A stretch of 64,000 bases of DNA from Nanoarchaeota archaeon SCGC AAA011-G17. Lineage in GTDB: Archaea > Nanobdellota > Nanobdellia > SCGC-AAA011-G17. The stretch's first letter is position 1, and every line of letters starts with the position of its first letter. This document shows, piece by piece, positions 22,057 through 40,923 of the stretch. The position numbers and the translations under genes were made by a program. Below the pieces are notes generated by a model. The model was not told the DNA's origin. It ran no database searches and worked only from the letters and a program-made list of their open reading frames with translations. The stretch covers positions 37,344-101,343 of the forward strand of contig AQRL01000038.1 in the NCBI GenBank assembly GCA_000402515.1, written 5' to 3'.

Positions 22057-25000
22057 GTGATGGCAGTAATAGAAAAGATTAAGATGCAGGGATTTAAGTC
22101 CTTTGCCAAGTCTACTGAAGTTCCTTTAGGCAAGGATTTTAGTGTTATACTAGGCCCTAATGGCTCTGGTAAATGCCTAATTGGCAGTTCTTTAGTACAG
22201 TTAAATGATGGCTCCTTGGTTGAAATAGGTAAAATAGTTGAGGATAAATTGAAGACCAACTCTATTAAAAAAATAGATGATGGCTTTATAGCTGAAGGGG
22301 ATGATACTAAGATTATTTCTTTAAATTTAAATAACCTGAAAAATGAGGCTAAAGAGATTAAGGCTTATGTTAAAAGGGAATCTCCTGAATATTTATTAAG
22401 AATTAAGACAAGAAGCGGCAGGGAAATTACCAGTACAGAATATCATCCTTTATTTGTTTTTGAGGAGAATAGGATTAGGGCTGTTAAAGCTGACGAACTA
22501 AAAATAGGGGTTAAAATAGCTGTTCCGAGGCAGATTAGTATTGGAAAAAATAATTATTTTTATGAGTTAATTGATTTAATTGACAAAGGTGATAGAATTT
22601 ATGTTTCTTATAATGAAGAGTTTATTTGTATTTTAAATAAGTTAAAAAAATCTACATGGAAAGACTTGGCTAATGAGATAGGAATTCCTTTGAATGCTAT
22701 TAAGGGACTATTAGATAAACAGGCTATTAATTTTGCTTATTTAATTAAACTACTTAAACACTCTAAATTAAGTAATCAGGAAATAATAAAACTCATTCCT
22801 TATGTTAAATCAAAAGGCATTGAAAGAAAATATAAAGTTCCATGGTGTAATTCCAGAGAATTTTCAAGATTTTTTGGATATTTAATTGCTGAAGGAAGGT
22901 TACCAGAATCAAGTAATCAAATATGGTTTACAAATGGGGATGAGGAGATTGTTAGTGATTATGCTAATCTAGTCGCTCATTTGTTTGAAGTTAAGCCAAG
23001 CATTAATGAATATAAAGAGGGATGCTGGGATGTTTTGTTTTATTCTGTTCCAATAAGACAGATTTTAGATAAATTTGGCATGCATGTTGGTGGAAAAACC
23101 GAAAATAAAGAACTAACTAATTTATTTTTAAAAAACAGTTCTGATATAGAATTGGGAGAATTTTTATCCGGACTTTATTCCGGGGATGGCTATGTGGGAA
23201 AAAGCAGCATTGATATAATAACCAAGAGCAGAAAGTTGGGTTTTAATATTGAGAATATTTTGGTAAGATTGGGCATATTATTTAGCTCAAGATATAAAAT
23301 TAAAATTGCTACCAACAGTGGTTTTAGCGGGATTTATAGAGAAATTTCAGTATATGGCGTTGAGAATTTCTTAAAGTTTAAAAAATATGTCAATATAGTC
23401 CATAATTCAAAGAGAGAAAGGCTTGATAATCTTTTGGGCGTTAAGTCAAATCCAAATTTAGATGTTATAGATGTTAATAATTTAATAAGGAAGGTTGTTA
23501 AAGAGTTTAATATAAAAATAAAATCAAATAAGAAAGAATTTCCAAGATTAGGTGCCTATTGTTATAAACAATGTTTACCGAGCAGGAGCGGTATAAACTA
23601 TTTGATTGATAATTTGTTTTCTAACTCTAATGAACATGAGAATTTATTACTGTTAAAACAAATAGCTAACTCTGATATTTATTGGGATGAAATTATTGAG
23701 ATTGAAAAGATAAAAAGCAATGAGAAATGGGTTTATGACCTATGTATTGAAGATAATCATAATTTTATTGCGAATAATATATTTGTACATAACAGCAACA
23801 TTACAGATGCAATATGTTTTGTTCTCGGAAGATTGAGCGCCAAAAGCCTTAGAGCAGACAAGAGCGCTAATTTAATCTATAATGGGGGGAAAAAGGGGGA
23901 GCCTGCAAAAGAGGCAGAGGTAAGCATTTTGTTTGATAATTCTAATAAGTTATTTCCATTAAATGTCAGCAAGATAAAGATTACAAGAAGCGTCAGAGAA
24001 AACGGGCAGAGCAAGTACAAAATAAATGATGAAATCAGGACAAGGCAGCAGGTCATAGATTTATTGGCTGCTGGAAAGATAAATCCAGATGGGTATAATA
24101 TTGTTCTGCAGGGAGATATTACACATGTTACTGAGATGCCTACAGAGGAGAGGAGAAAGGTTATTGAGGATATTTCCGGCATTGGTGTTTATGAGGAAAA
24201 AAAAGAAAAGGCAATTAATGAATTAACAAAGGTTGATGTGAAATTAAATGAGGCAAGCATTGTTCTGAAGGAGAGAGAAACCTATCTTAGTGAGCTAAAA
24301 AAAGACAGGGATCATGCTGCTAAATACAAGGATCTTGAAGGCAATATCAAGAGGAATAAGGCTACCTTTTTGCATGTTCAGATTAATGACAAACAAAAGA
24401 AGAGGGAAGAGTTTGAAGGCAAGATTAATAAAAATCAGGAAGAGGCTGATAAGATAAGAAAGACGGTTGATGAATTGAGAGAGGAAATTAACAAAAATAA
24501 GGAAGAGATTAGTTCTATCAGCAAGGAAATAGAGGAGAAGGGAGAGAAAGAGCAGGTTAATCTTCACAGAGAGATTGAAACTGTTAAAGAGCAGAAGGCC
24601 AGAGACCAGGCAAGAATGGAGGGTTTGGGCAATGAGCTTAACAGGATTAATGAGAGAAAGAAACAATTAGAGATTGATTTAAGAGAAATAACTGAAAAGA
24701 TAAAACAACTGGAAAATGAGAGAAATAATTTAACAAAAAGAAGAAAGATTATTGTTGAAAAAGAGAGCATCATTGAAAAGAAATTAGGAGGAAAAAGAGG
24801 AGATAACAAGGAAGAGAGGGATTTAGACGAGATTGAAAAAAAGCTGGATGAAAAACAATTTATCCTGGATGAATTAAATAACAAGAAAACAATTTTGTTA
24901 AGGGATAAAGACAGATTAGACACACAGATAAATTCTCTGAATAAATTAAGCGGCGGAGATGAATTAAAAAAATTAAAAGAGTTTAAAGAGAAATTTAAAG

Positions 25001-27072
25001 AGGTTTCCAGTAATCTTAATAGTTCTTTAAAAGATAATGATAATATTGTTTCACAGCTTTCCAAGGCAAGAAGCAAATTAAGAGAGATAAGCGAGGAGCA
25101 GGCCAGATTAAGCATAAGAGAGGTTAGTTTCAAAGAAGGGGCTTATGGCGACCTTGCTTTAAACAAGATAAAAGAGCTTAGAATGAATGGGGTGTATGGG
25201 ACAATAGCTGAGCTTGGTGAGGTTGACAAGAAGTTTTCTATGGCTTTGGAGGTTGCTGCCGGCTCCAGAATAAAAAGTATTGTTGTTGAGGATGATTCTA
25301 TTGCTGCCAAGTGCATCAAATATTTAAAAGACAATAAACTAGGTGTTGTTACTTTCCTGCCTTTGAACAAAATAAAGGCTCCTGAAGCAATTGATAAAAA
25401 AGTGGGTTATGGCATTGCCCTGAATCTAATAAAATTTGACAACAAATTCAGCAGGGCATTTGGCTATGTTTTTGGAAATACAATTGTTGTTGAGAATATA
25501 AACCAGGCAAGAAATATCGGCATTGGAAAGGACAGGATGGTTACTTTAGATGGGGATTTAGTTGAGGGCTCTGGAGCAATGATTGGTGGTTTCAGAAGGC
25601 AAAAAACAGGATTTAAACAGATGGATTTTACAAAGAACCTTGAAGAGCTTAATAATGAGATTGGAAGATTAAGAGAGATTGTAGATAGTTTAGAGAAGAA
25701 AAAATTAGAGAATGAGGATAATGTTTATCTGTTAAGAAACGATAAGTCTGAATTAGAGGGAGAGATTATAAAACTGGAGAAGAGCTTTGGCGGGGAAGAA
25801 GAGAAAAATGAAAGAGAATCAGCTGTTAAAAATCTAAATAGTGTTGAAAGGGAATTAAATAATGCTGAAGCAAATTACAATAAATTGCTTAAGGATGTTG
25901 AAGAATTAAAAAATAAAAAAAGCTCTTTGAGAGAGAGTGTAAGCAAGATAAGAGGAAACAAAGAAACTGATAAAATAGATTCTGAGTTCAGGCAGATTAG
26001 AGAAGAAAGAATTGTTTTGGAGAATGAATTAAAAAATATTGAGATACAGATAAGAGACGGATTAATTCCAGAAAGAGAAAATATAATCAGGATTATTAAA
26101 GAGCATGAAAAAGAGATTTTAGAATTCCAGAAAGAGAGCGAGGATATCAGTGATAGACTTCTTAAAAATCTTAATCTTTTAAAAGATAAGGAGAGGAATG
26201 AAAAGGAATTTTATTCTAATTTCAAAAATTTATTTAACAAGAGAAACAAATTAAGCGATGAAATACAAAAGAGGGAATTAAAGAGTGTAAGTGAGTATAG
26301 CAGAGTTAGGGCAATTGAGGACAGAACTAACAGCCTGAATATTGATAGGGCAAAGGTATGTGCTGAATTAGAAGGTCTTAATGCTGAATATGAGCAGTTT
26401 AAGGAAATTCAATTAAGAAAAGGAATTGAAATGGATAAATTAAAAGAGGAAATCAGAGATTTTGAAAAGATGATGAATAATCTTGGGAATGTTAATCTAA
26501 GAGCCTTGGAGATTTATGATGAGATTGAAAAGGAGTATAATTCTTTACAGGACAAGGCTGCTACACTAAAATTAGAGAAAGAGGATGTACTAAAGATGAT
26601 TAGTGAGATAGAAAGCAAGAAAGGAGATATGTTTATGAAGAGCTATTCTGAGATAAGCAGGAATTTTGAGAGAATCTTTTCCGAATTGACTGACAAGGGA
26701 ACTGCACATCTTATTTTGGATGATAAGGACAATCCATTTAACGGCGGATTGAAGATTATGGTAAGGATTGCTAAAGGGAAATATCTGGATATCAAGAGCT
26801 TATCCGGGGGAGAAAAGACTCTGACTGCCTTGGCTTTCATATTTGCTATACAGGAATATGACCCTGGGCATTTCTATGTCTTTGATGAGGTTGATGCGGC
26901 TCTGGACAAGACTAATTCCTCTAAATTAGCTAAATTGTTAAGAAAGTACAGCGATAAGGCGCAGTATATTGTTATAAGCCATAATGACAATTTGATTTCT
27001 GAGGCTAATCAGCTATACGGCGTTAGTATGACTGAGAATGGAATGAGCAAGGTTATCAGCTTAAAGGTTTAA
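22057..27072 (+). CDS. smc: Chromosome segregation protein SMC interrupted by an in-frame intein
   Basis: The extein reads 'FKSFAKSTEVPLGKDFSVILGPNGSGK|SNITDAICFVLG' (SMC N-terminal Walker A). It has long coiled coils. C-terminal 'LSGGEKTLTALAFIFAIQ' (signature motif) and 'FYVFDEVDAALD' (Walker B) are present. Confidence 0.85.
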   Translation: MMAVIEKIKMQGFKSFAKSTEVPLGKDFSVILGPNGSGKCLIGSSLVQLNDGSLVEIGKIVEDKLKTNSIKKIDDGFIAEGDDTKIISLNLNNLKNEAKEIKAYVKRESPEYLLRIKTRSGREITSTEYHPLFVFEENRIRAVKADELKIGVKIAVPRQISIGKNNYFYELIDLIDKGDRIYVSYNEEFICILNKLKKSTWKDLANEIGIPLNAIKGLLDKQAINFAYLIKLLKHSKLSNQEIIKLIPYVKSKGIERKYKVPWCNSREFSRFFGYLIAEGRLPESSNQIWFTNGDEEIVSDYANLVAHLFEVKPSINEYKEGCWDVLFYSVPIRQILDKFGMHVGGKTENKELTNLFLKNSSDIELGEFLSGLYSGDGYVGKSSIDIITKSRKLGFNIENILVRLGILFSSRYKIKIATNSGFSGIYREISVYGVENFLKFKKYVNIVHNSKRERLDNLLGVKSNPNLDVIDVNNLIRKVVKEFNIKIKSNKKEFPRLGAYCYKQCLPSRSGINYLIDNLFSNSNEHENLLLLKQIANSDIYWDEIIEIEKIKSNEKWVYDLCIEDNHNFIANNIFVHNSNITDAICFVLGRLSAKSLRADKSANLIYNGGKKGEPAKEAEVSILFDNSNKLFPLNVSKIKITRSVRENGQSKYKINDEIRTRQQVIDLLAAGKINPDGYNIVLQGDITHVTEMPTEERRKVIEDISGIGVYEEKKEKAINELTKVDVKLNEASIVLKERETYLSELKKDRDHAAKYKDLEGNIKRNKATFLHVQINDKQKKREEFEGKINKNQEEADKIRKTVDELREEINKNKEEISSISKEIEEKGEKEQVNLHREIETVKEQKARDQARMEGLGNELNRINERKKQLEIDLREITEKIKQLENERNNLTKRRKIIVEKESIIEKKLGGKRGDNKEERDLDEIEKKLDEKQFILDELNNKKTILLRDKDRLDTQINSLNKLSGGDELKKLKEFKEKFKEVSSNLNSSLKDNDNIVSQLSKARSKLREISEEQARLSIREVSFKEGAYGDLALNKIKELRMNGVYGTIAELGEVDKKFSMALEVAAGSRIKSIVVEDDSIAAKCIKYLKDNKLGVVTFLPLNKIKAPEAIDKKVGYGIALNLIKFDNKFSRAFGYVFGNTIVVENINQARNIGIGKDRMVTLDGDLVEGSGAMIGGFRRQKTGFKQMDFTKNLEELNNEIGRLREIVDSLEKKKLENEDNVYLLRNDKSELEGEIIKLEKSFGGEEEKNERESAVKNLNSVERELNNAEANYNKLLKDVEELKNKKSSLRESVSKIRGNKETDKIDSEFRQIREERIVLENELKNIEIQIRDGLIPERENIIRIIKEHEKEILEFQKESEDISDRLLKNLNLLKDKERNEKEFYSNFKNLFNKRNKLSDEIQKRELKSVSEYSRVRAIEDRTNSLNIDRAKVCAELEGLNAEYEQFKEIQLRKGIEMDKLKEEIRDFEKMMNNLGNVNLRALEIYDEIEKEYNSLQDKAATLKLEKEDVLKMISEIESKKGDMFMKSYSEISRNFERIFSELTDKGTAHLILDDKDNPFNGGLKIMVRIAKGKYLDIKSLSGGEKTLTALAFIFAIQEYDPGHFYVFDEVDAALDKTNSSKLAKLLRKYSDKAQYIVISHNDNLISEANQLYGVSMTENGMSKVISLKV
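22174..23793 (+). mobile_element. Intein (540 aa) with LAGLIDADG homing-endonuclease domain, inserted between Lys and Ser of the SMC Walker-A motif
   Basis: It starts 'CLIGSSLVQLNDG' and ends 'NFIANNIFVHN', followed by Ser+1. DOD motifs are 'FFGYLIAEGRL' and 'FLSGLYSGDGYV'. Confidence 0.85.
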
Positions 27073-28083
27073 TCTTTTTTCTGCTGTATTTAGTATCATA
27101 TGGAGCATTTCTGGATAAGAGTATTTTGCGAATGAAGCAGCTCTTGCAAGATGCCCGTCCCAGCACCATCCAGGATTTGGGTTTATTTCAAGAAGTTTTG
27201 GAATTCCCTTTGAATTTAAACGCCAGTCAAATCTTGCATAGTCTCTGCATTCAAGAGCTTCAAATAAAGTTAAAGAGCCATTAACAATTTTTTTTCTTGT
27301 CTTATAATGAAGGTTTGCTAAAACAGGACGAATGCTATAATATGGTGAGCTCTCATCCCATTTTGCCTCTCTTCCGCAAATATGTGGTGAATCTTTCGGC
27401 AAACCAGAGTAATCTTCTTTTATTAGTGGAAGAAGTTCAAATAAACCTGGATTTCCAATAATACCCAAGGTTATATCATCACCCTGCAAAAATTCTTCAA
27501 TCAGGATTGGATCTTCAGAAACCCGGCAAAGCTCTGAAACTGCCTGCTCGAGCTCTGATAAATTATTAGCAACGCTTTTTTGATTTATATTAAGGCTTCC
27601 ATCACCATAATTTGTTTTGACAATGACTGGGTAATTTTCAATAGATAGTTTTTCAAGATCTTTTCTTTTATTTATCATTACTCCTTCTGGAATCTGGATC
27701 TTACGTTCTTTTGCTATATTTTTTACAAGAGATTTATCATAACAGTTAACCATACACATTTTTCCGGCGCCAGTATAGTGAATACTAAAAAAATCTAACA
27801 TCACTGGGATACGATCTTCTTGTTTGGGGTCGTTCATATAACCCTCATCGCATAAATTAAATGCAAGGTATATTTCTTTTCTTTGAAAGAACAAAGAATA
27901 GAATAAGTTTTCATGATCGTCAAAATAATCAAATTGATAGCCTTCTAGTGTAGCAAGGGCCTCTTTAAGTCTTTCAACAGTCTCTTTGTCATCTTGATCA
28001 AATTTATTTCCCGGCTTGATTGGGTCAGGCTTGGTAGGATCACCTAAGATAACTGCTATTCTTTTTAGGTTTATGTCTGTCAT
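27061..28083 (-). CDS. ATP-grasp family protein (D-Ala-D-Ala ligase-like)
   Basis: 'IAVILGD', 'YPVIVKTNYGDGS' and 'LLEINPNPGW' resemble the Ddl/ATP-grasp core. It is convergent with smc and overlaps it by 12 nt. Confidence 0.5.
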   Translation of the reverse strand: MTDINLKRIAVILGDPTKPDPIKPGNKFDQDDKETVERLKEALATLEGYQFDYFDDHENLFYSLFFQRKEIYLAFNLCDEGYMNDPKQEDRIPVMLDFFSIHYTGAGKMCMVNCYDKSLVKNIAKERKIQIPEGVMINKRKDLEKLSIENYPVIVKTNYGDGSLNINQKSVANNLSELEQAVSELCRVSEDPILIEEFLQGDDITLGIIGNPGLFELLPLIKEDYSGLPKDSPHICGREAKWDESSPYYSIRPVLANLHYKTRKKIVNGSLTLFEALECRDYARFDWRLNSKGIPKLLEINPNPGWCWDGHLARAASFAKYSYPEMLHMILNTAEKRLNL

Positions 28084-28156
28084 TTTTTAGTTAGCTGTTA
28101 AAAAGGAAACTTTTGTTTTTATAATGTTCTCTCTAAGATGTTATAAAAAGAAAAAA

Positions 28157-28924
28157 TTATTGAAGATATATTTCTACTTCATTCCCAGTTAGCATTTCTA
28201 CAATCCCATCTAGATTTCTTGGGTCTACTTCTTTAACAAGATCTGTTCTACCAGGATACACATATTTTGCATCTGCTCCTGCTCCGTATAAAACATCTCC
28301 TTCTTTTATATCAGTTATGGATTTTAATAAAGGGTAACCAGTTATTCCAGCAATTTCTCCTAAATCGAAACCAGAAACTTCTGTTGCAATCCAATAACGT
28401 AATGCAAAATTATCCTGCCATGTTGCAGGTCTAGCATCTCCATACCAATAGGTGGGGAAATTACCAGAACCAATAGGAAATTGTATATCACTTGTCCAAT
28501 ATTGACCTACCCCCAGTTCTGCCCATTTATTATAGTTTCTTTGCAATAATGAATCTCTTCTTTCGATTAAATTAGCATCAACAGTTACTGGTGTTTTTAA
28601 GATAAAATCTACCCCTATCCTATAAACAATATCATTGTATTCAAAAATTCCCTTATAAATATCAAAAGCACCTATCTTTACTGAATCTATTTTTGATGGG
28701 AGGGTTGTATCTGAACCATAAGGTGGAAATGGATATATACCTATTTTTTTAAGAGTTGTTGAATCTAGGGTAAGTATTATTGGGTCATTAGGAATGTTAT
28801 TGGTTGGCAGTTGATTTTCTGTAGAAGGAAGGTTGTTAGGTCCTGTAATACTTAATAAATTGTTTCTATCTTCAGAGCAAGCTAAGGCACTAATAAATGC
28901 TAGTGGAATAATTAATCTTTTCAT
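28157..28924 (-). CDS. Secreted/lipoprotein-like protein (signal peptide with 'LAC' lipobox-like site)
   Basis: N-terminus 'MKRLIIPLAFISALACSED'. No recognisable domain. Confidence 0.4.
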   Translation of the reverse strand: MKRLIIPLAFISALACSEDRNNLLSITGPNNLPSTENQLPTNNIPNDPIILTLDSTTLKKIGIYPFPPYGSDTTLPSKIDSVKIGAFDIYKGIFEYNDIVYRIGVDFILKTPVTVDANLIERRDSLLQRNYNKWAELGVGQYWTSDIQFPIGSGNFPTYWYGDARPATWQDNFALRYWIATEVSGFDLGEIAGITGYPLLKSITDIKEGDVLYGAGADAKYVYPGRTDLVKEVDPRNLDGIVEMLTGNEVEIYLQ

Positions 28925-28936
28925 CTTATTTCTTCC

Positions 28937-29278
28937 TTATCCTTCTCTTTTATCCTTGTAGCTTTTTATTCTATCTTTATATATTATGTATTGATGTATA
29001 AAATCTCTATATAATGGTCTAATAATACTGGATAACATTAATAATGTACTAAAATCAAATTCTGTTTTATTAAAATATTCTGTTGTATTTATTCCTAAGT
29101 AAGAATGTATTGGTCTATCCATCCATGGGTTTGCATCTATTGCACCTGTAAATCCTATCAAACCAATAAGTAATTCAGAACCGGAAACTATTAATTCTAC
29201 ACCATCTCTACCAATTTTTTTGTTCATTATTGTTTTTAATTTATTTTTAATGTTCATTTTTAATATGGTTCCCCCCAA
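28937..29278 (-). CDS. Hypothetical protein
   Basis: ORF in the operon context of the surface cluster. Confidence 0.3.
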   Translation of the reverse strand: MGGTILKMNIKNKLKTIMNKKIGRDGVELIVSGSELLIGLIGFTGAIDANPWMDRPIHSYLGINTTEYFNKTEFDFSTLLMLSSIIRPLYRDFIHQYIIYKDRIKSYKDKREG

Positions 29279-29327
29279 GGTTTATAAGTTTTTTTAAAAA
29301 AAATAAAAAAAAGAAAAAGGGTTTTTC

Positions 29328-30587
29328 TTAGTAATAAGTCTGTCCTGCAGATGGCTCTTCTATTGATTCCTCGCCTTCATCTTCTTTTAACTTTTTGAAA
29401 GCAATGATTAATCCTAGAACAACCAAGATTATTGCTAATACTGCAAATCCTATCTGCAATACACTCTTCAAGCTGCCCATACTGGAAGCCTGAGCTTGAA
29501 CATCTGCTTCTAGATTCAACTCTTTAACAGTCTTGCCGTTTGATTTTATCTTAACAGTGAATGCGTGTTTTCCTGCCTCTGCGTTTGCATTAGCAGTTAA
29601 TTTAACATACATTTCACCTGTCTCGTCAGGCATAATTGTTACAATTGCTGGATCTACTCTTGCAGCTGCGAAAGCACCTACACCGGTTACTTCTGCTGAA
29701 TAAACTGCTTTTTCAGCTTCAAAGTTAGCAAACATCAACTTGTATACAACTTCACTTCCTGGAGCTACTGCTTTAGATGCTGCATCTACACTTATCATTG
29801 AATTTGATAATTCTGCGGATACAATACCTTTTACGTGAAGTGTCTTTGTTTCTTTCAGTGTTGAATGACCGTTGTTATAGGTAACTTCAACTTCAGCCTT
29901 GTAATCTCCTGTCTTGGCATCAGCAGGTATTCTTGCGAATAACTCTACCTGAGCTGAGGATTCATCATCGTTATTAGTATCTTCTGCATTTTGAGTTATT
30001 AACTCAGCTAAATAATCGGATGTTGAAACTCCAAGGTCTGGAATTGTCAAGCTTACTTTGATGTCTTCTTCTTTCTTGTAACCTATGTTCTCAAGCCTTA
30101 CTGAAACAAATAAAGCTGAATCAGCATCTATTGAGCTTGAAGGCCTGAAGATTACGTCTTGGATTGACAATGAATGCCTTGATTCTTTGACTCTTACATC
30201 AAAGTCTTTTTCTTCAGAATCTGTTTTGTCTGATACCTTAACAGTTAGTGTGTAGGTTTCAGAAGCGTCTAAGTCTGATGGAATGTCTAAGGTAAGTGTT
30301 TTCTTGTATGTAACACCTGATTCAACTTCAAATACATCTGATACATCTGAAATTGAGCCGTATTCATAACCATCTATCTCTGCTCTTACTTTAACGTTGT
30401 CTTTGTTTCCAGTAGCTTTAATCCATACTTCTACTGGTAATTGTTCCCCTCTTACAACATCCACTACACTTCCTGTAGCTGAGACGTCGTCTATTTTTAC
30501 ATCTGCTATTCCATAATTACTAGAACTAGCTGATACTGTTGTTAGCACCAGTAATAGTGCAAATAACATTGCTAATATTTTCTTCAT
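29328..30587 (-). CDS. Surface protein: signal peptide, beta-rich repeat domains, C-terminal TM anchor with acidic tail
   Basis: 'MKKILAMLFALLLVLTTVSASS' signal peptide. C-terminal 'IGFAVLAIILVVLGLIIAFKKLKEDEGEE'. Confidence 0.5.
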   Translation of the reverse strand: MKKILAMLFALLLVLTTVSASSSNYGIADVKIDDVSATGSVVDVVRGEQLPVEVWIKATGNKDNVKVRAEIDGYEYGSISDVSDVFEVESGVTYKKTLTLDIPSDLDASETYTLTVKVSDKTDSEEKDFDVRVKESRHSLSIQDVIFRPSSSIDADSALFVSVRLENIGYKKEEDIKVSLTIPDLGVSTSDYLAELITQNAEDTNNDDESSAQVELFARIPADAKTGDYKAEVEVTYNNGHSTLKETKTLHVKGIVSAELSNSMISVDAASKAVAPGSEVVYKLMFANFEAEKAVYSAEVTGVGAFAAARVDPAIVTIMPDETGEMYVKLTANANAEAGKHAFTVKIKSNGKTVKELNLEADVQAQASSMGSLKSVLQIGFAVLAIILVVLGLIIAFKKLKEDEGEESIEEPSAGQTYY

Positions 30588-30646
30588 TTTTTTAACCCCC
30601 CATCAAAGTGGTATTATTATGTTGTTATTTTGTAGTTAATACTCAT

Positions 30647-33073
30647 TTATAAACCTTTCTGTTGGTTCTTTAGGTCAATAAAAAAGTATTTTGTCTCGGT
30701 ATCCTTGTTATTACTTACAGTTACAGCAATTACTTCCTGTTTCCTATCTGTATTCACTGGCAGTTTAAACATGAAGGTCTGTGTCTTTACTTCTTTTGGA
30801 TTTAGGTCAAAGCTTGATGAATATTGTATCTGGTTAAGCTCTGGCAGGGATATTGTTACTCTAACATCCTTTTCCTTTAATCCTGCAAAATTTGCTGCAA
30901 ATACTGTTACTGGGAAATACTCTCCAGGAACTACATTTTTCATGCTGTTAACTATTACTCTTTCGATTCCAATATCATGCTTTGTAGCTCTTAGTGACTT
31001 TGCTTCTTCTGTTACTGTAATCACTGCTGTTTTTTTAGATTCTAAAACACCATCTGTAACTTTGAAAATTAGATTATAGTTACCTAGTGAGCCTGGCACC
31101 CAGGTGAATAACTGATTGTTAAATGCTGCTCCCTCTGGCTTGTTTTCTGCACTGAAGGTTAGTTCATTACTGCCATCATACTGTGCTGAAATTGTGAACT
31201 CTACTTTCTGCCCTAATTTTATTTCCTGTGATGGAATATCATTCAGGCTTAAGTGGAATTCTACTGGCTCTGTGTATTTTGGAAGAACCTTGATTAGTAT
31301 TTCCTGCGTTGCTTCTGCCATGCCATCAGATGCTATTATTATTGAGATGTATTCTCCTGCATCCCCTACTCTTGTCTGCCATTCACCATTCTGGTTTAAT
31401 GGAGAGGTGTAGGAATAGGTTAATTTGTCAAAGTCCAAATCTGTAAATGAATTTCTTGGAACTATCTTTACCAAGTCTCCCTCTGTTACTATAATCGGAC
31501 CTATTGGATTAACTATATGCGGCAATCTGTTAACATCCTTTACTGAGATTATTACTTCCTGCTGGGCATTCAAACTTCCTGCAGATGCCTTGAATGTTAG
31601 TTTAAACTCACATTTTCCGTCATTTCTGCACTGCTTCCCATTTGTGAAATAGTTTGTTATGAATATCTTTATTGTGTCAATAAATGTCCTTTCATGGCTT
31701 ACTGTGTTGTAATCAGGAGTCCAAGCGAATTTATAGCCCAGTAATGGGGCTGGATAATTTAGTACTCCTGGGCCATAGACTGGCTCAAAGGCTGCTCCAC
31801 TTGGCAGGTTTTCTGCAGAATAGTCTATCTTTTGATTTCCATTATAATAAGATGGAGTTACAAAGAAGGTTAATTCTGAGCCTTCATTTACACCCTGATT
31901 AGGTATGAATTTCAAGTCTAGTACTTGTTCTGTTGGAGTTGTTTTTTCGTGAACGGTTAATGGAATTGTCAATACTTGTGATGGATAGTTGCTTATTCCA
32001 TTACATTTTGGATCCTCTGGCATTCCTTCTACTCTTATTGTGTAATCCCCTGCTTTATTTGGTGTCCATGTAAATGAAAACTCTTTTGTATTCTTTAGAT
32101 AGTAATAGGTGTAAGTATAAGCTACTTTCCCGCTTGAATCTTTTACTGTTAGCTTAACTTTATCTTTTACAGGCTCTGTATTCTGGTAGTTATCAATGTA
32201 ATAGGATGATTTATCCCCTGTGATTGTTATTAATTCTCCTACTTCTGCATCAATTGGATTTGATGTTCCTGGTCTATTTAGAATGGTGTAGCAGGCATTT
32301 TGCGGAACATTTTCATGAACCTTGAATTCTGCACTAGCTGTATTTGTTTTTGAAGATGAGCATTTTGAATCAACTACATCTGTTGTTATAAACGCTACAT
32401 AATCATCCTCTAGTGTTGGTGTCCATGTAAATTCAACTGATTGTGAAGAATCCATGAAGATATTTAGTGTCTTTGATTCTTTATATTCATAAGTTGAAAT
32501 ATTGAGATTAGATTTCTTGTAAATCCATAGTGTTACTTTTGTTTCAGCTGAATAGAAATCCCTGTACTCTGCTGGTATGAAAGCAGGTGTATTGCTATTT
32601 GAATGTAATGCTGAATAGGTATCTGCATCTAGTGAAGCTGGAACTTTGATTATTAATGGGATGTTCGGTCTTACATCATTTAGAACTTCAATATGGTCAA
32701 TAGGTGCTGAGCACTGGGCTTTCTTCTCTAGAGTAACTAGTTCAGTTGATTCACCATTTCCATAAACACTCTTGAATGCTTCTTTTCCAAGATATCCCTG
32801 CTTAAAGGCATAAACAGCATATCCGTATTGTGTTGGCAGATTTGTTGGGTACCATACTTTTATATCATAATTTGGATCATTGGCATTTGTATTCCCATTT
32901 GCATGAGGCGTTACAGAACTACAAGATGCATCATTACAAGTATAGGCTAGAAAATTAACATTGTCTAATTTATTCCCATCTTTATTCTGAAATTCATAAG
33001 TCATAATTACCTGAGCACTAGCTAGACTTATTAAAAATACAAATAAGATAGGGATTAAAAGTAATTTTTTCAT
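30647..33073 (-). CDS. Large secreted adhesin-like protein (808 aa) with multiple Ig/cadherin-like repeat modules
   Basis: Signal peptide 'MKKLLLIPILFVFLISLASAQ'. Repeated '...FTWTP...' beta-sandwich-like modules. No TM. Confidence 0.5.
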   Translation of the reverse strand: MKKLLLIPILFVFLISLASAQVIMTYEFQNKDGNKLDNVNFLAYTCNDASCSSVTPHANGNTNANDPNYDIKVWYPTNLPTQYGYAVYAFKQGYLGKEAFKSVYGNGESTELVTLEKKAQCSAPIDHIEVLNDVRPNIPLIIKVPASLDADTYSALHSNSNTPAFIPAEYRDFYSAETKVTLWIYKKSNLNISTYEYKESKTLNIFMDSSQSVEFTWTPTLEDDYVAFITTDVVDSKCSSSKTNTASAEFKVHENVPQNACYTILNRPGTSNPIDAEVGELITITGDKSSYYIDNYQNTEPVKDKVKLTVKDSSGKVAYTYTYYYLKNTKEFSFTWTPNKAGDYTIRVEGMPEDPKCNGISNYPSQVLTIPLTVHEKTTPTEQVLDLKFIPNQGVNEGSELTFFVTPSYYNGNQKIDYSAENLPSGAAFEPVYGPGVLNYPAPLLGYKFAWTPDYNTVSHERTFIDTIKIFITNYFTNGKQCRNDGKCEFKLTFKASAGSLNAQQEVIISVKDVNRLPHIVNPIGPIIVTEGDLVKIVPRNSFTDLDFDKLTYSYTSPLNQNGEWQTRVGDAGEYISIIIASDGMAEATQEILIKVLPKYTEPVEFHLSLNDIPSQEIKLGQKVEFTISAQYDGSNELTFSAENKPEGAAFNNQLFTWVPGSLGNYNLIFKVTDGVLESKKTAVITVTEEAKSLRATKHDIGIERVIVNSMKNVVPGEYFPVTVFAANFAGLKEKDVRVTISLPELNQIQYSSSFDLNPKEVKTQTFMFKLPVNTDRKQEVIAVTVSNNKDTETKYFFIDLKNQQKGL

Positions 33074-33082
33074 TTGAACCCC

Positions 33083-33883
33083 CTAATAAGTGTTATTGCT
33101 CCAGTCGCCTGTGTTGTATACCTTTTCCTTTCCGCCCTTTCTTTTAGTAATCAAATATGTTGCTGTTCCTACTGCTGCAGTTGCTGGTACAGTGAACTTC
33201 CAATTTTTGTACCATGATGTCTTTAATGCCTGAGCAACTGCTGCTTGAGTAATGTCTGTTACTCTGTCTATATAATTATTGAAATTATTCTGTGCTGAAA
33301 GTATCAAGTCATATGAATCTTTAGGCAGTGATTCTTTCAATCTGTTAAGGTCTGCAGTTGGAAGAGCATATTTTGGCTGTAATAGATTTGAAATTTCTTC
33401 AGATGTTAGTTTTCCATCTTTTACCATTCCATTATATGATTTTACAGCATCTTCTATACTTTTTCTTATTCTATATACTTCAAAGTTTATTAACTTCTTT
33501 TCTTCAGCATTTAATGAATCAAATTCTATTGTATATGCTACTGCCCTGTCAATAACATCTAATACATCTAATGAATCTTCAACAGTCATATCAAATGCAT
33601 TTGAATTTACAGAAATCCCATCTGGATATTTTTTGTTTAATGCTTTAATCTGCTTTGCTGTCAAACCCCTTACTGTTGTTTGTCTTATTGGTGCAGCATC
33701 ATATAATGAATCTGTTCCTGTGTATTTAACTGGCAATAGTGGAACTGAGGTTGTATCTTCTGCTACCTGTTCTTGAACTGATAAAGAAGTTGTTGGAACC
33801 TCTCTTAATTCCTGTGCTTTTGCTGTGCTGAATAATAAACCTCCAGCAAGCAATCCTGTTGCTAAAATATGATTTGTTTTCAT
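33083..33883 (-). CDS. Secreted protein with C-terminal TM anchor
   Basis: Signal peptide 'MKTNHILATGLLAGGLLFSTAKAQE'. C-terminal hydrophobic helix plus 'KRKGGKEK'. Confidence 0.4.
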   Translation of the reverse strand: MKTNHILATGLLAGGLLFSTAKAQELREVPTTSLSVQEQVAEDTTSVPLLPVKYTGTDSLYDAAPIRQTTVRGLTAKQIKALNKKYPDGISVNSNAFDMTVEDSLDVLDVIDRAVAYTIEFDSLNAEEKKLINFEVYRIRKSIEDAVKSYNGMVKDGKLTSEEISNLLQPKYALPTADLNRLKESLPKDSYDLILSAQNNFNNYIDRVTDITQAAVAQALKTSWYKNWKFTVPATAAVGTATYLITKRKGGKEKVYNTGDWSNNTY

Positions 33884-33898
33884 TTTAATCCTCCATGA

Positions 33899-34948
33899 TT
33901 ATTTTTTTTGATAACTTTGCATTTTTCTCCAACCACTTGGAATATTTATTTTTCCAATTTTCTGCTTTATTTCTTCTTTGCTTGGTCCTGTGTATGTAAC
34001 ATTCTGTCTTGCTAATTCATCAAGCCCAATTACTTTACCATTTTGTGATTTTACACCATATAATATTCCATCTTTTGCATTTACTTTGTATAATGTTCTT
34101 ACGTCTTCTCCTAAAATGTCTCCTCTATATGTATCATATTTTCCATTAAAGAATTCATCTATTGAACTTTTTGGTACATAACTACTATCTCCAAGTGCTT
34201 TTATTCTTAGGTAGTCACTAATGTTCTTTGTAGGACCTGTTGCATAATTCACAAATTCTTTGTTATCTAATGATGGTTTCCATGGTAATTGTTTTGCACT
34301 GAAACTTCTTTGTCCATCGATTATATAGTCTATTAATACGTTAAATCCTGGATAATTTAGTTCATGATTTGCTTTTATAGTTAGTATTGTTTCTCTTTCT
34401 GTTATTTGTGCTTCTCTTGTTGTTTTTTGTGCATGAGCAATAGCTGCATTTTTTTCCTTTGTAGCTTTTTCAGCTTCTTTGACTTTTTCTTCTTTTTCTT
34501 TAACTGCAACGTTCTTTCCCATTTCTGCAATATTCTTTGCTTCTCTTGCTTTCTTAGCCAAATCAAAAGTTATTTGGGCTGATTGTGAAGCATATTGCGC
34601 TGATTTAAGGCTTGATTGTGCTATGTCTTCTTGATTTTTTGTAGACTTCCAAGAATATGCTGTGTAGATTGGAATCCCAATTAATGCTGAGAATAATGCA
34701 CCCCTTAGTATTTGTGTTCCATAATTAACAATCTTTCCTCTTATTGTATGGTCTGTTTCTGTAACATGTACTTCTCCATTGTCTTTTTGTTCTGTTGGAT
34801 TATCACTTCTTTCCAAACCAAATTTAAGTACTTCTTTTGCTGGTATTTGTCCATTTCCTACTCTCTTTTGAAAACCTTTTTTTGGATCTTTGAAATCCAT
34901 TCCTCTTTCACTTTGGTTTCCTTCTGATTCTGATTTTTCATTTGCCAT
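33899..34948 (-). CDS. Single-pass membrane protein with cytoplasmic N-terminus and extracellular coiled-coil/globular domain
   Basis: TM 'LRGALFSALIGIPIYTAY'. K/E/A-rich coiled-coil region. 2-nt gap to the upstream ATPase gene. Confidence 0.4.
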   Translation of the reverse strand: MANEKSESEGNQSERGMDFKDPKKGFQKRVGNGQIPAKEVLKFGLERSDNPTEQKDNGEVHVTETDHTIRGKIVNYGTQILRGALFSALIGIPIYTAYSWKSTKNQEDIAQSSLKSAQYASQSAQITFDLAKKAREAKNIAEMGKNVAVKEKEEKVKEAEKATKEKNAAIAHAQKTTREAQITERETILTIKANHELNYPGFNVLIDYIIDGQRSFSAKQLPWKPSLDNKEFVNYATGPTKNISDYLRIKALGDSSYVPKSSIDEFFNGKYDTYRGDILGEDVRTLYKVNAKDGILYGVKSQNGKVIGLDELARQNVTYTGPSKEEIKQKIGKINIPSGWRKMQSYQKK

Positions 34949-34949
34949 T

Positions 34950-35939
34950 TTATTTACTCTCCCTTTCTTGCTTTTGATAGTTTATAGCATGTGATATGAT
35001 ATCTGCAACAAGATTTTGTGTTGTTGATTTAAACTGCCTTATCCCATCTTCATTTAGAGACATTATGTTTCCAGGACCTGTTGCTTTTTCTATTTCTGGT
35101 CTTTCTTGAATGAAATAAACATATTCCCCAAAGAAATTTTCTTCTGGTAAGAGTGGTTTTAGTCTTTCAAACTCTCTTTTTGCTTTATCTATTTTTAGTT
35201 CATCAAGCGGTCTTGCTAGAATTCTTTTCAGTGTGCTGCTTTCTTCTTCTATTCTATTTATTATTAGTAATTTCTGTTTTTTTGTTTCTTCATAGTAATC
35301 TCTTTCCTTTGTTAGTTCTATTATTTCTTTCACTATTTTTGGGATAGTGCTCATTGATGCATCCCCTCTTTGACTTACTATTACCCTGTTATCTGTTTCT
35401 ATTAATGGCTCTAAACCCATTTGTTTGGAGGCATAGTTCGGAAAGTCATAAATAACCACCCCATAACTGCTATTCTTTAAACCTTCTATAATTTTCATTT
35501 GTGCATTTAATGTTTTTTTATCGTTATCAATGGTTATCCCATTTATCCAATCATCATTTCTTATTAAAAAATAAGATAAGTTAGGACAGCTAATACTTTG
35601 AGAATATAATGATGGGTCGATACCTTTTTTTGTGACAAAGGACCTGATTCTATTTTTTTCTTTTATATCCTGGAAAACTATTGAAACAAGATTTGGATTA
35701 TTGATCCAATTAAATTCTACTGCTGCTGTTTTTAATCCTGATTTTGCAGATAAGTAGGCAAGCCATGCTGCTAGTGTTGTTTTTCCTACCCCCCCTTTTG
35801 CAGATGAAATACCCACTTGAATTGGTCTGTATAATCCTTGTTCTTTATACCAAATAGTTCCATCAGTGTTTGGATCAGAATTTCTTTGCTGTGATAACAT
35901 ATGTTGTAATACTTTTGTTCTTACATTATAGTCTGGCAT
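34950..35939 (-). CDS. ParA/MinD-family P-loop ATPase (deviant Walker A)
   Basis: 'GISSAKGGVGKTTLAAWLAYLSAKSG' is a deviant Walker A of the SIMIBI ParA/MinD class, with a ~45-aa N-terminal extension. Confidence 0.65.
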   Translation of the reverse strand: MPDYNVRTKVLQHMLSQQRNSDPNTDGTIWYKEQGLYRPIQVGISSAKGGVGKTTLAAWLAYLSAKSGLKTAAVEFNWINNPNLVSIVFQDIKEKNRIRSFVTKKGIDPSLYSQSISCPNLSYFLIRNDDWINGITIDNDKKTLNAQMKIIEGLKNSSYGVVIYDFPNYASKQMGLEPLIETDNRVIVSQRGDASMSTIPKIVKEIIELTKERDYYEETKKQKLLIINRIEEESSTLKRILARPLDELKIDKAKREFERLKPLLPEENFFGEYVYFIQERPEIEKATGPGNIMSLNEDGIRQFKSTTQNLVADIISHAINYQKQERESK

Positions 35940-36014
35940 ATCATAACCCCCAACACTATTTTTAAAATGTTATCATTATATAAAGGTTTCGGTAAAGTTA
36001 CTATTTTATAATGA

Positions 36015-36668
36015 TTAACGTATTGGTCTCATGCTTCTCCAATTTTTCTTTTTTGGAGCTGACAGCTTAAATTCTGTAGAATCTTTTTTTGTTTCAGTTG
36101 ATATAGAATCTTTTTCGGCATAGGATAAATCTGAGCTAAATATTAAAATCTGGGGATACCAGACATAAGCATCTTTGCCATTAAAACTTTTATCTGTCGG
36201 CACTTTTTCTTTTGTAAAATAGGCTATTGCTGTTTTTTCTTTTAGTAGTGAACGAAGCGTTGAAAATTCTGCTGGCTCTAACATGTTATCACTGAAACAG
36301 ATATCAAAGCAATCAAGTAATACAGGATCAGTAGTAATAATGTTTTTCAGAGTATCTTCCAATGCCCTTCTTTTTTCATTTAAGGTATCCTCTCCAAAGA
36401 GATTATTTAAGATTGGAGTTAATACTTCTCCCTTTATTCTCTTTTTAACTGATTCTATGCATACTTCTGAACTGTCTGAATAGTCATTCAATGGAAGGAT
36501 TAGATATTGTGCTTTGTATATTTTTCCTATCCTGTCTGTTTTGTAAGGATATGAGATAGTATCATTAGATGCTGGATCCGGCCTTAACCCATAATTTCTT
36601 GAGTCTGCATTTAATCTTGTTAGTAAAAATGGGATGGATGCAATCGTCAATAAATTTCTTAGTTTCAT
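36015..36668 (-). CDS. Secreted hypothetical protein
   Basis: Signal peptide 'MKLRNLLTIASIPFLLTRLNA'. Confidence 0.4.
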   Translation of the reverse strand: MKLRNLLTIASIPFLLTRLNADSRNYGLRPDPASNDTISYPYKTDRIGKIYKAQYLILPLNDYSDSSEVCIESVKKRIKGEVLTPILNNLFGEDTLNEKRRALEDTLKNIITTDPVLLDCFDICFSDNMLEPAEFSTLRSLLKEKTAIAYFTKEKVPTDKSFNGKDAYVWYPQILIFSSDLSYAEKDSISTETKKDSTEFKLSAPKKKNWRSMRPIR

Positions 36669-36715
36669 AATAATTTTTACTTTAAAGTAGTTATATAAAT
36701 CTTTTGATAGAAATT

Positions 36716-36828
36716 TGGGAACGTGGGGATTTGAACCCCAATCAACTGGTGTCTTCTAAATCACAGCCGAAGCTCATCACTCCAAACACTGGAGCCAGTT
36801 ACACTAAACCAGGTTGTGCTACGCTCCC
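36716..36828 (-). tRNA. tRNA-Trp (anticodon CCA) containing a 38-nt intron at the canonical 37/38 position
   Basis: Reverse complement folds as a cloverleaf. Acceptor GGGAGCG/CGTTCCC. D-arm GCAC..GTGT with GG in the loop. Anticodon stem ACTGG/CCAGT. Loop CUCCAG|A. T-arm TGGGG-TTCAAAT-CCCCA. Discriminator A73. No encoded CCA. Confidence 0.7.
36751..36788 (-). other. tRNA intron (bulge-helix-bulge type)
   Basis: The intron TGTTTGGAGTGATGAGCTTCGGCTGTGATTTAGAAGAC pairs TGGAG with the anticodon-loop CUCCA. It contains a box-C-like GTGATGA. Confidence 0.6.
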
Positions 36829-36864: not shown

Positions 36865-37386
36865 TTACTTGTATATTATATATAGGTAGAGCTCTTCAAA
36901 AAAGAACTTTTGTTTTTCCAATTCTTTGAATTTCAGATTATTTTTTTTAATTAAAGAATTTATTTTCTTCTTATTTGTTAGTGAGGAGAAGATTAAGAGG
37001 ATTTTTCCATTCTTGTTCAGATGAGAATTAACTTGATTAAGGAATCTTTCAATTAGCTCATATCCTTTTTTTCCTCCATCCAGTGCCTTGTCTTTTACTA
37101 ATTGATCATTTGGAAGATAGGGGGGATTAAAGATAATTAAATCAAACTTTCCTTTTACATTTGAAAATAGATCTGATAGCTTGAATTTTATATTTTTTCT
37201 TTTAATATTTTTTTTACAATAATCAATTGCTTCTTTATCAATATCAACAGCAAGAACTTTTTTGCAGTAGTTTGATGCTTCGAGTGCAAGAATTCCTGTA
37301 CCTGTTCCTATTTCCAAGCATGAATCTGATGGATAGTTTTTGATATGTTTTTCAATAAGATAAGAATCTTCTTCCGGCTCGTACAT
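36865..37386 (-). CDS. HemK/Mtq2-family protein (release factor glutamine) methyltransferase
   Basis: 'CLEIGTGTGILALE' (motif I), 'LAVDID', and 'NPPY' in 'IIFNPPYLP'. ~170 aa, as in archaeal Mtq2. Confidence 0.7.
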   Translation of the reverse strand: MYEPEEDSYLIEKHIKNYPSDSCLEIGTGTGILALEASNYCKKVLAVDIDKEAIDYCKKNIKRKNIKFKLSDLFSNVKGKFDLIIFNPPYLPNDQLVKDKALDGGKKGYELIERFLNQVNSHLNKNGKILLIFSSLTNKKKINSLIKKNNLKFKELEKQKFFFEELYLYIIYK

Positions 37387-37452: not shown

Positions 37453-37932
37453 ATGAAAAAAGGATTAGTTCTAGGATTAATTGCAGTGATGCTGTTAGCA
37501 ACAGTGAGTGTAGTATTTGCAGCTGGTGGTTTTGATAAATTTGGGTATAACTATCAGGCAAGAGTTTTTGTAGGGGCTGCTGATGGTGTAGATAGAGTAC
37601 TCGATGGAAAAGTTTGGGGGGACTCAACATATGCCAAAGACCATTTAGTTATGAAATGGAGCAAGGGATGGGATGATGCAAGATTCCATGGAGCAGCTTG
37701 GACACCAGAGGCATGGGAAGACAATGAATGGAATGGAGCAGTTCCTGGTGGTTCAGGAGAGGTCTGGCATTATAAAATAATATGGGTTGGACCACAATTA
37801 GAAAATAGTCCCTACTGGAGAGAAGGCGGATACCCTGTCTGGGGTCAGTTTGAGGTAATTATGGACCAAGGAACTTCGCAGGGAGAACATTTATGGTTTA
37901 CTCATGCAATTCCAACAGGATACGGCAAATAA
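37453..37932 (+). CDS. Secreted Trp-rich hypothetical protein
   Basis: Signal peptide 'MKKGLVLGLIAVMLLATVSVVFAAGG'. Confidence 0.4.
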   Translation: MKKGLVLGLIAVMLLATVSVVFAAGGFDKFGYNYQARVFVGAADGVDRVLDGKVWGDSTYAKDHLVMKWSKGWDDARFHGAAWTPEAWEDNEWNGAVPGGSGEVWHYKIIWVGPQLENSPYWREGGYPVWGQFEVIMDQGTSQGEHLWFTHAIPTGYGK

Positions 37933-40197: not shown

Positions 40198-40923
40198 ATG
40201 AGAAGAAGACTTTTTTGTATTGGATTTGGTGCATTTGCTTATTCCTTGTTAAATGCAGAAGATAGGAAATTTTCTGATCTAAATGACAGTGAGAAAAAGG
40301 ATGTTTTATTTGATATTGTCAAGGAGATGGATGGAAAATATACATTTCCTGTTCCTATGGCTTCTGGTTTAGAAAAGAAACAGGCATTATCTGTGAATAA
40401 ATCTTTGTTTGAATTTGGTGCGGGAAGACCGTATGGCCAAAAACATAAGGGCATTGATGTATATGGCTTTGGCAAAGATGTTGTTTATTTTGCTGATGGT
40501 AAAATTGAGGAAGCAGGAAGGAACATCAACAGCTTTGACCATGGAAATATTGTTGTTGTGAATCATGGAGATATTAATGGATATAATTTATGGAGCTATT
40601 ATCTACATATTGGCGGGATTAATGGAATTAGGGAGGGAGATAGTGTAAAAATTGGAGATGCTTTTGCCAAGATTGATTGTACTGGGATAAGCCCTGATAG
40701 TAGAAGATTGTATAACCCAGGCTCTAAAGATTGCAAGAGAGTAGCACATTTACACTTCCAGATAAGAATAGGGGACATGCATGTCAATCCGAATTATTTT
40801 TTTCCAGAATATTCAGAAAACTCTTTACCAAACTTAAAGAGATGGAGATTGGCTATAAAGGCTAGCTCTTTAGAGGATAATATTGCTGGATTCAAAGGCA
40901 AACAGAGTCGCGGCTCTTTCTGA
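40198..40923 (+). CDS. Secreted M23-family (LytM-like) metallopeptidase
   Basis: Signal peptide, 'KHKGIDVYG' (HxxxD) and 'AHLHFQI' (HxH) zinc motifs. Confidence 0.65.
   Translation: MRRRLFCIGFGAFAYSLLNAEDRKFSDLNDSEKKDVLFDIVKEMDGKYTFPVPMASGLEKKQALSVNKSLFEFGAGRPYGQKHKGIDVYGFGKDVVYFADGKIEEAGRNINSFDHGNIVVVNHGDINGYNLWSYYLHIGGINGIREGDSVKIGDAFAKIDCTGISPDSRRLYNPGSKDCKRVAHLHFQIRIGDMHVNPNYFFPEYSENSLPNLKRWRLAIKASSLEDNIAGFKGKQSRGSF

Follow-up and report, generated by a model that had tools for sequence, protein, structure and literature searches.

The 64,000-nt window analysed here, positions 37,344 to 101,343 of contig AQRL01000038.1 (assembly GCA_000402515.1) from Nanoarchaeota archaeon SCGC AAA011-G17, carries on its minus strand a real, conserved and lineage-restricted operon in which a ParA/MinD-type ATPase (G2) is followed by a membrane-spanning partner (G3) within a putative surface-layer (S-layer) gene cluster, a new form of the ParA/MinD-plus-partner theme. 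Its gene order, the translational coupling of G2 and G3, an ATPase that has kept its motifs and is under purifying selection, and the inheritance of the parts as modules can all be observed in the DNA and its relatives. According to these comparisons, G2 and G3 are probably a cognate ATPase/membrane-partner pair. The full explanation, that this pair together with the anchored protein G4 would form a trans-envelope module co-expressed with the envelope proteins G5 and G6 and organising them locally, is advanced tentatively, as possible and short of probable, and the organising role of the module with G4 towards G5 and G6 is held with lower confidence than the G2–G3 pairing. A preliminary description had seen here a candidate eight-gene envelope or host-attachment machine built around the ATPase, a proposal that is partly supported by the present analysis. 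All eight minus-strand open reading frames (ORFs) that it placed between 28157 and 36668 are present (G1–G8, Table 1), and the labels "adhesin" and "host attachment" are purely inferential.

Conservation and character of the ATPase and its probable partner

Related loci were recovered outward from G3 and the ATPase in single-cell genomes and in groundwater, lake and other metagenomes, the closest contigs being those of the single-cell assemblies GCA_000402735.1 and GCA_000380905.1. The order G2-G3-G4-G5 is kept in nine distinct loci (the window, L036, L042, L043, L037/38, L039-41, L044-47, L048 and L035/L049-51), with G4 and G5 homologues present wherever the contig continues and G5 coming after G4 in every locus that reaches that far; the conservation of the ATPase neighbourhood in relatives, a check set in advance, is thereby borne out. 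G2 and G3 are separated by 1–2 nt or overlap by 4–8 nt in the window, L035, L036, L037, L039, L044-47, L048 and L049-51, and the two genes are translationally coupled in every locus found. The spacing of 2 nt given earlier for the window measures 1 nt, and the earlier idea of an ATPase wired to a transmembrane (TM) coiled-coil protein is strengthened by this coupling in every locus and by co-inheritance of the two as a cassette.

Judged by its sequence, G2 is a very divergent ATPase of the ParA/MinD superfamily that fits no named subfamily. The deviant Walker A motif KGGVGKTT (S46-A-K48-G-G-V-G-K53-T-T) and the N-terminal extension of the preliminary description are both there, the signature lysine being invariant in class A, the ATPase class of the window, and the extension comprising ~40 aa; a NWINNPN switch region is a further feature. 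Residues P82-N83, D165 (hhhhDxP), D183 and N228 are invariant across both ATPase classes and an outgroup MinD. The Pfam thresholds of CbiA (32.3 bits, cutoff 25.4) and AAA_31 (32.4 bits, cutoff 27) are cleared narrowly, and named NCBIfam subfamilies, including ArsA/Get3, score about 10–20% of their cutoffs. The best of these is BcsQ (34.7 against 157.85), the others including partition ParA NF041546 (27.2 against 180), bacterial MinD TIGR01968 (25.8 against 212.9 bits), a CpaE homologue model (18.5 against 154.45), archaeal MinD TIGR01969 (18.3 against 201.75 bits) and the BY-kinase model TIGR01007 (13.6 against 108 bits). A generic PHROG ParA-like match reaches 35 bits, accompanied by weak matches to partition ParA and Soj, and the closest solved structure is E. 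coli MinD (E about 1e-3). Only 3 homologues were found at E<=1e-5 among 5.8 billion proteins, and scans of GTDB genomes and JGI metagenomes with the ATPase alignment returned generic P-loop relatives only, none sharing G1 or G3–G8. G2 is the sole deviant-Walker-A ATPase in the window.

G3 is predicted to be bitopic, with an N-terminal cytoplasmic tail, one hydrophobic segment, a long helical stalk and a C-terminal domain of ~150 residues (Table 1). An exhaustive HMMER search among 1.84 billion representative proteins gave a family of 7 members, and searches of Pfam and NCBIfam gave no family match, with no ParB, helix-turn-helix (HTH) or ribbon-helix-helix (RHH) domain. Assignment to VirB10/TraB/TrbI was considered and rejected, with a score of 15.2 bits where 400 are required and a match confined to the low-complexity stalk.

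Exchange of the ATPase and the tail of G3 among strains

One argument for a matched pair is an exchangeable cassette comprising the ATPase ORF and G3 codons 1-156, which encode the tail, the TM segment and the initial third of the stalk. In the close relative L037, the DNA at this position bears no similarity to the cassette, and blastn synteny breaks off sharply at 35957 and 34480. Amino-acid identity between the window and L037 amounts to 98% for SMC, 93% for XPD, 89% for the Ddl-like protein, 86% for a methyltransferase, 99% for G6, 82% for G5, 83% for G4, 71% for G3 residues 157-349 and 53% for G1; for the ATPase and G3 residues 1-156 there is none beyond the P-loop. The ATPase of L037, L039 and L044 at this position belongs to a second class, B. 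The two classes are homologous over 240 columns (hhalign probability 96%) and 18% identical, a distance equal to that from generic archaeal MinD. The class-B ATPase of L037 keeps the signature lysine. Class-B ATPases from Hainich groundwater (L039:1001-2077 and L044:429-1499) read S[PA]GGGVGKTT and have lost it.

The class of the G3 tail matches that of the ATPase in every locus. Class A tails have F.[ED]RV and N[GS]E.HV.E.D in common, and class B tails carry [NG]FW immediately ahead of the TM segment. G1, G4 and G5 occur in types that are inherited independently of ATPase class, as in L039/40, where G1, G4 and the G5 N-terminus are 83%, 88% and 96% identical to the window, yet the ATPase is of class B. 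The same picture emerges when pairwise identities in the nine loci are compared by Spearman correlation: the ATPase correlates with the G3 tail (rho 0.84, n=31) and not with the G3 ectodomain (−0.06), G4 (−0.11) or the G5 N-terminus (−0.28), and the G3 ectodomain correlates with G4 (0.66), the ectodomains of which fall into two types that track that of G3. Contiguous parts of G3 correlate poorly with each other (0.29 and −0.06), and the breakpoints therefore concentrate in the stalk. There are thus two co-inherited modules, an inner one of ATPase, G3 tail and TM segment and an outer one of G3 ectodomain and G4. Since the ATPase and the G3 tail are swapped together between related strains, they are probably a matched pair.

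Within class A (window against L043) the ATPase has a dN/dS (ratio of non-synonymous to synonymous substitution rates) of 0.05, comparable to 0.05-0.07 for housekeeping genes. Because this value points to strong purifying selection, the ATPase can be regarded as a constrained, functional enzyme that appears to exist as ancient divergent alleles. The fastest-evolving genes of the locus are G3 (0.5-0.66) and G1 (0.49, against L037), followed by G4 and G5 (about 0.3-0.35) and G6 (0.14). Such fast evolution of G3 and G1 fits exposed or conflict-driven proteins, and a report on Nanoarchaeota populations describes raised non-synonymous variation in predicted surface proteins (PMC6142677). Synonymous divergence (dS) between the window and L037 is itself a mosaic, with values of 0.03 (G5 C-terminus and G6), 0.11-0.13 (Ddl and SMC) and 0.7-0.9 (G1, G5 N-terminus and the XPD side), which points to recent recombination or transfer of the G5(3′)-G6-Ddl-SMC segment (window 27061-33073). 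As dS differs so strongly along the locus, recombination is pervasive throughout these genomes rather than confined to the cassette.

The same data bear on a quite unlikely alternative, in which G2–G3 would serve ParA-type DNA segregation or tether the nucleoid, the membrane-anchored G3 acting as a ParB/SegB-like partner that couples chromosome and envelope. Superfamily membership of G2, with its ParA-like PHROG match and the weak matches to partition ParA and Soj, is consistent with it, as are the position of the partner gene directly downstream, as in parAB or segAB, the SMC encoded nearby and the lack of a visible MinD-like membrane-targeting helix in G2. It is opposed by the partition ParA model, of which G2 reaches 27 against a cutoff of 180, by a G3 that has no DNA-binding domain (no ParB, HTH or RHH match) and lies in bulk beyond the membrane segment, and by the co-variation of the G3 ectodomain with the extracytoplasmic G4. 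Centromere-like repeats did not turn up either, in an analysis that included no search aimed at them.

Putative surface-layer genes and the extent of the unit

Downstream of the proposed ATPase–partner pair, the proteins take on the character of an envelope gene cluster. Signal-peptide and TM calls were made by eye and with hydropathy heuristics, by which G1, G4, G5, G6 and G8 have signal-peptide-like N-termini, five proteins being also the count given in the preliminary description. G4 joins its signal peptide to a helical ectodomain, a weaker C-terminal hydrophobic segment as anchor and a short cytoplasmic tail. That tail (window 33083-33160 and homologues) occurs in two variants, GKEKVYNxGDWxNxT and G.EQK..GG..G, independent of both G4 ectodomain type and ATPase class. 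G5 passes the He_PIG threshold (26.4 bits), with weak PKD and immunoglobulin-like (Ig) matches, and has 55 homologues, the named ones coming from "Nanoarchaeota archaeon" metagenome-assembled genomes. G6 has Ig/CARDB-like domains, FixG_C and NPCBM_assoc matches and a strong C-terminal TM segment (residues 379-397). It scores 76 bits against the NCBIfam model NF033506 ("putative S-layer protein"; cutoff 110) over profile positions 223-623 of 627, and its orthologues in L037 and the distant locus L052 score 71-74 bits, so that G6 looks like an ordinary S-layer-type protein, as far as sub-cutoff profile matches can tell. The earlier statement that none of the non-ATPase proteins belongs to a recognisable family was thus too strong, in view of the He_PIG match of G5 and the sub-cutoff S-layer match of G6.

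The distant context was compared at a single locus, L052, where a glycosyltransferase gene, a gene for a 417-aa protein with signal peptide and C-terminal anchor, G5 and G6 follow one another, with an intein-bearing SMC gene a few genes on. Its full-length G5 homologue is 33% and its G6 39% identical to the window. The 417-aa protein resembles G4 in topology only and was rejected as a homologue (hhalign probability 0.5%). Because L052 has G5-G6 without ATPase or G3, G5-G6 is an old, conserved envelope pair, and ATPase-G3(-G4) is a lineage-specific addition and not a required hub; the view of a cluster built around the ATPase does not survive this comparison.

It is accordingly worth weighing, though unlikely, that G2–G3, alone or together with G4, forms a lineage-specific module of its own that merely lies upstream of the surface-layer genes G5 and G6, its position inherited in a narrow clade. 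Besides L052, this explanation can draw on the S-layer family match of G6 and the TATA-like element that G6 may have of its own, on the independent assortment of G5 types and ATPase class, and on the origin of every locus from one narrow lineage. Nevertheless, the gaps between G3, G4 and G5 are only 9-22 nt, with Shine-Dalgarno (SD)-like sites and no T-run between, which argues for co-transcription; the gene order survives many recombination events that shuffle every component; and the G3 ectodomain and G4 lie outside the cytoplasm, as do G5 and G6.

Candidate transcription signals delimit the unit further. TATA-like motifs TTTATATA lie ~40 nt upstream of the ATPase start and upstream of G1, both as motif matches only, the motif occurring 22 times in the window where 12.8 occurrences are expected. 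G6 may have a promoter of its own in TTTATAAA, located at the G5 stop codon. SD-like GGGGG or GGAGG stands ahead of G2, G4, G5 and G6, GGAGG preceding the G4 ATG. From upstream to downstream, the genes are spaced G1-75-G2-1-G3-15-G4-9-G5-59-G6-49-G7-12-G8 nt, and the first long T-run of the cluster, after G6, probably ends the transcription unit. The 1.13-kb segment with G7 and G8 is absent from L037, where a Ddl-like gene directly follows G6, and represents a strain-specific insertion in the window genome, outside the conserved unit. The insertion is bordered by T-rich sequence, with only a CTTA micro-repeat at its junctions; neither G7 nor G8 has a family match in Pfam or NCBIfam, and the G8 N-terminus is lipoprotein-like (ALAC). 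G1, without a match in the same two databases, is an optional, fast-evolving member of the locus, found in L037 (53% identity), L039 (83%) and L044 and missing from the L035/L049 lineage, in which the ATPase comes immediately after tRNA-Trp. Since G7-G8 is absent from L037, the T-run follows G6 and G1 is optional, the conserved unit is G2-G3-G4-G5(-G6), smaller than eight genes. Of the eight-gene cluster described earlier, the eight co-directional ORFs therefore stand, and the extension of the cluster to G1 and G7-G8 does not.

The upstream border of the locus is an intron-containing tRNA-Trp(CCA) gene that Rfam recognises and that relatives likewise carry ahead of the ATPase (in L035, with both genes on one strand); its anticodon stem reads ACTGG/CCAGT and its loop CTCCAGT. 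ARAGORN reported 0 tRNAs for the whole window, and this gene was recovered by Rfam only. The window has a methyltransferase gene where the L049 lineage encodes, upstream of tRNA-Trp (L049:129-1091), a protein of 320 aa that combines repeated HTH-like modules with a nuclease-like region at its C-terminus. Downstream, the locus is flanked by a Ddl-like ATP-grasp gene and by an SMC gene with an intein. The tRNA intron, the inteins of SMC and Lhr, the TrmB regulators and the XPD helicase encoded in the window characterise the organism as a DPANN-type archaeon, as do the Nanoarchaeota relatives of G5.

The tRNA gene, the divergent alleles, the G7-G8 insertion and the ParA-like PHROG match would all suit a remnant mobile element or a defence/conflict island at tRNA-Trp, with ParA as its partition gene. 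This origin is extremely unlikely: Pfam searches gave no integrase or replication gene, PADLOC gave no matches, scans of IMG/VR for G3, G5 and G6 gave no relatives, the GC content is not distinctive, and in every relative the locus lies between core genes at an unchanged chromosomal position.

Table 1. Positions of the operon, its parts and other features in the window
Feature	Positions	Strand	Remarks
G1	36015-36668	minus	217 aa, secreted-type
G2 ATPase	34950-35939	minus	329 aa
G3 stalk protein	33899-34948	minus	349 aa, bitopic
G3 cytoplasmic tail	34712-34948		residues 1-79; predicted from hydropathy
G3 hydrophobic segment	34655-34711		residues ~80-98; one segment, predicted from hydropathy
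G3 long helix	34355-34657		residues ~98-198; AlphaFold2 (AF2) secondary structure, low confidence
G3 C-terminal domain	33902-34354		residues 199-349
G4	33083-33883	minus	266 aa, signal peptide and C-terminal anchor
G5	30647-33073	minus	808 aa, multi-Ig, unanchored
G6	29328-30587	minus	419 aa, S-layer-type
G7	28937-29278	minus	113 aa, small TM protein
G8	28157-28924	minus	255 aa, lipoprotein-like
G7-G8 segment	28157-29284		absent from L037
Exchangeable cassette	34481-35956	minus	ATPase ORF and 5′ part of G3
TATA-box-like motif of G2	35977-35984	minus	candidate promoter of G2-G6
TATA-like motif of G1	36692-36699	minus	motif match
T-run	29296-29318		after G6
tRNA-Trp(CCA)	36716-36828	minus	intron ~38 nt; Rfam tRNA 49.3 bits
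SMC	22057-27072		intein-containing
SMC intein	22183-23805		Intein_splicing, LAGLIDADG
Lhr-type helicase	11560-15858		intein-bearing (Intein_splicing, LAGLIDADG)
Segment without counterpart in L037	37387-37954		
159-aa secreted protein	37453-37932		in the preceding segment
Segment without counterpart in L037	39251-40925		267-aa protein and M23 peptidase
M23 peptidase	40198-40923		in the preceding segment
Large surface-type protein	55710-58787	minus	1025 aa; MopE metal-binding motifs, dockerin, PKD

Several further features of the window deserve mention. The SMC intein is missing from the L037 orthologue, otherwise 98% identical, yet it is found in the distant L052. Two other segments have no counterpart in L037, one of them encoding a murein-type M23 peptidase, which is noteworthy in a DPANN archaeon. 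A further large surface-type protein lies outside the cluster (Table 1).

A possible trans-envelope organiser

The positioning of envelope machines by ParA/MinD ATPases is an established principle, with archaeal MinD4 and MinD2 as examples. Like the positioning ATPases of this group (Haloferax MinD4/MinD2 for archaellum and chemosensory arrays; FlhG, TadZ/CpaE, BcsQ), G2 has KGGxGK[ST], a Walker B Asp and a dedicated partner next door, and it may share their envelope-organising role. Unlike them, it has the N-terminal extension, the NWINNPN switch region and no evident terminal membrane-targeting helix, its partner is bitopic with most of its mass outside the cell, and two classes ~18% identical alternate at one locus. 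ParA-ParB, SegA-SegB and McdA-McdB likewise combine an ATPase gene with a translationally coupled, fast-evolving partner, the probably disordered N-terminal tail of which is the likely ATPase-interacting peptide, and here too ATPase and tail co-vary; G3 differs in being membrane-anchored, with an extracellular domain and without a DNA- or cargo-shell-binding domain. On the outer side, the two-component archaeal S-layers of the SlaA/SlaB type offer a parallel, G6 having a signal peptide, Ig-like domains and a TM anchor and G5 being a large unanchored multi-Ig partner, the pair conserved to at least 33-39% identity (L052). Unlike in those systems, the S-layer role of G6 is putative, with 76 against a cutoff of 110. 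No T2SSE, TadB/C, prepilin, BcsA or flagellar matches occur in the eight proteins or their immediate neighbours, in agreement with the earlier view that the locus is not archaellum-, pilus- or Tad-like. The Dip divisome-positioning system was considered and is unrelated, being GTPase-based.

A second, unrelated archaeal MinD-like ATPase predicted to be translationally coupled to a giant envelope protein was seen in L005 (CAIVED010000011.1, uncultured archaeon AlinenSediments_bin-0934). A surface protein of >2264 aa (L005:25-8262), rich in N-glycosylation sequons and ending in C-terminal TM segments, overlaps there by 4 nt a canonical 268-aa MinD-type ATPase (ISIKGGVGKTT), and a 122-aa single-TM protein comes next.

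In CapA/CapB and TkmA/PtkA of Firmicutes, a MinD-like P-loop protein is activated by the tail of an adjacent membrane protein with a helical ectodomain, in an envelope-related role. G2–G3 is similar in uniting a P-loop protein with an adjacent membrane protein that has a helical extracytoplasmic domain. It could, by analogy, be a split regulator of the CapA/CapB kind (PCP-2b/BY-kinase) that steers glycan or surface-layer assembly, perhaps phosphorylating tyrosines in the tails of G4 (…KVYNTGDWSNNTY) and G6 (…GQTYY). This is very unlikely, even with the similar two-gene layout and predicted topology, the weak TIGR01007 match, tyrosines in the short cytoplasmic tails of G4 and G6, and a glycosyltransferase upstream of G5-G6 in L052. 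Unlike CapA/CapB and TkmA/PtkA, G2–G3 has an N- and not a C-terminal tail, one TM segment and not two, no C-terminal tyrosine cluster (the final 30 residues of G2 contain one Tyr) and no polysaccharide export genes in the cluster; furthermore, TIGR01007 is far from its cutoff and the G4 tail variant is independent of ATPase class.

The tentatively preferred explanation remains a cognate G2–G3 pair that, together with G4, could organise the surface layer. The N-terminal cytoplasmic tail of G3, with its short conserved motifs, would be the partner peptide of G2. G3 would span the membrane once, and its ~100-residue helical stalk (~15 nm) would reach the space beneath the surface layer, where its small terminal domain could act jointly with the ectodomain of the anchored G4. 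The G2-G3-G4 module would be co-transcribed with the unanchored G5 and the anchored G6. In ParA/MinD systems, an N-terminal peptide of the partner recruits and stimulates the ATP-dependent dimers; by analogy, ATP-dependent dimerisation of G2 and its stimulation by the G3 tail might set the place or number of the G3-G4 complex, and this placement might in turn organise the surface layer locally, e.g. at a specialised patch. The physical contacts of G2 with G3 and of G3 with G4 are putative, like the topology and the positioning role, and so would be any connection with the host.

Several points weigh against this explanation, however. The AF2 models of both proteins are poor because the alignments hold only 4–5 sequences: the G2 model (4 sequences; mean predicted local distance difference test, pLDDT, 34) is unusable for the fold, only helix 98-198 is credible in that of G3 (5 sequences; pLDDT 53), and the ParA fold and the G3 domain are thus putative. 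In the G3 allele of the window, the putative membrane segment has only moderate hydrophobicity. G2 has no evident membrane-targeting helix, its C-terminus being the charged YQKQERESK, and a MinD-type C-terminal amphipathic helix, looked for there, gave no convincing signal. The signature lysine is missing from some class-B ATPases (GGGVGKTT in L039 and L044), and L052 keeps G5-G6 beside SMC with neither ATPase nor G3. The system is confined to one narrow lineage, in which synteny could reflect simple inheritance, and physical linkage alone co-inherits adjacent segments, so that co-variation is not proof of contact. Any function is wholly inferred.

A more far-reaching version, decidedly improbable, would make the locus an undescribed polymorphic trans-envelope organiser of DPANN archaea, in which the ATPase reads the stalk tail and the outer domain of G3 and G4 dock G5 into the S-layer, forming a localised host-contact patch. 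The inner module (ATPase and tail) and the outer module (G3 ectodomain, G4 and the G5 N-terminus) would then be shuffled by recombination under host or virus selection.

The literature searched contained no S-layer operon with a ParA-type ATPase, no description of a ParA/S-layer system in DPANN and no cytoplasmic organiser of the DPANN surface layer, for which the present locus offers a small candidate consisting of one ATPase, a membrane-spanning partner, an anchored co-factor and two envelope proteins. The ATPase/tail cassette is its most interesting feature. That closely related genomes carry, at one chromosomal site, ParA-type ATPases of allelic classes diverged to ~18% identity is unusual for the superfamily. 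These natural swap alleles predict cognate versus non-cognate specificity and provide a direct experimental handle.

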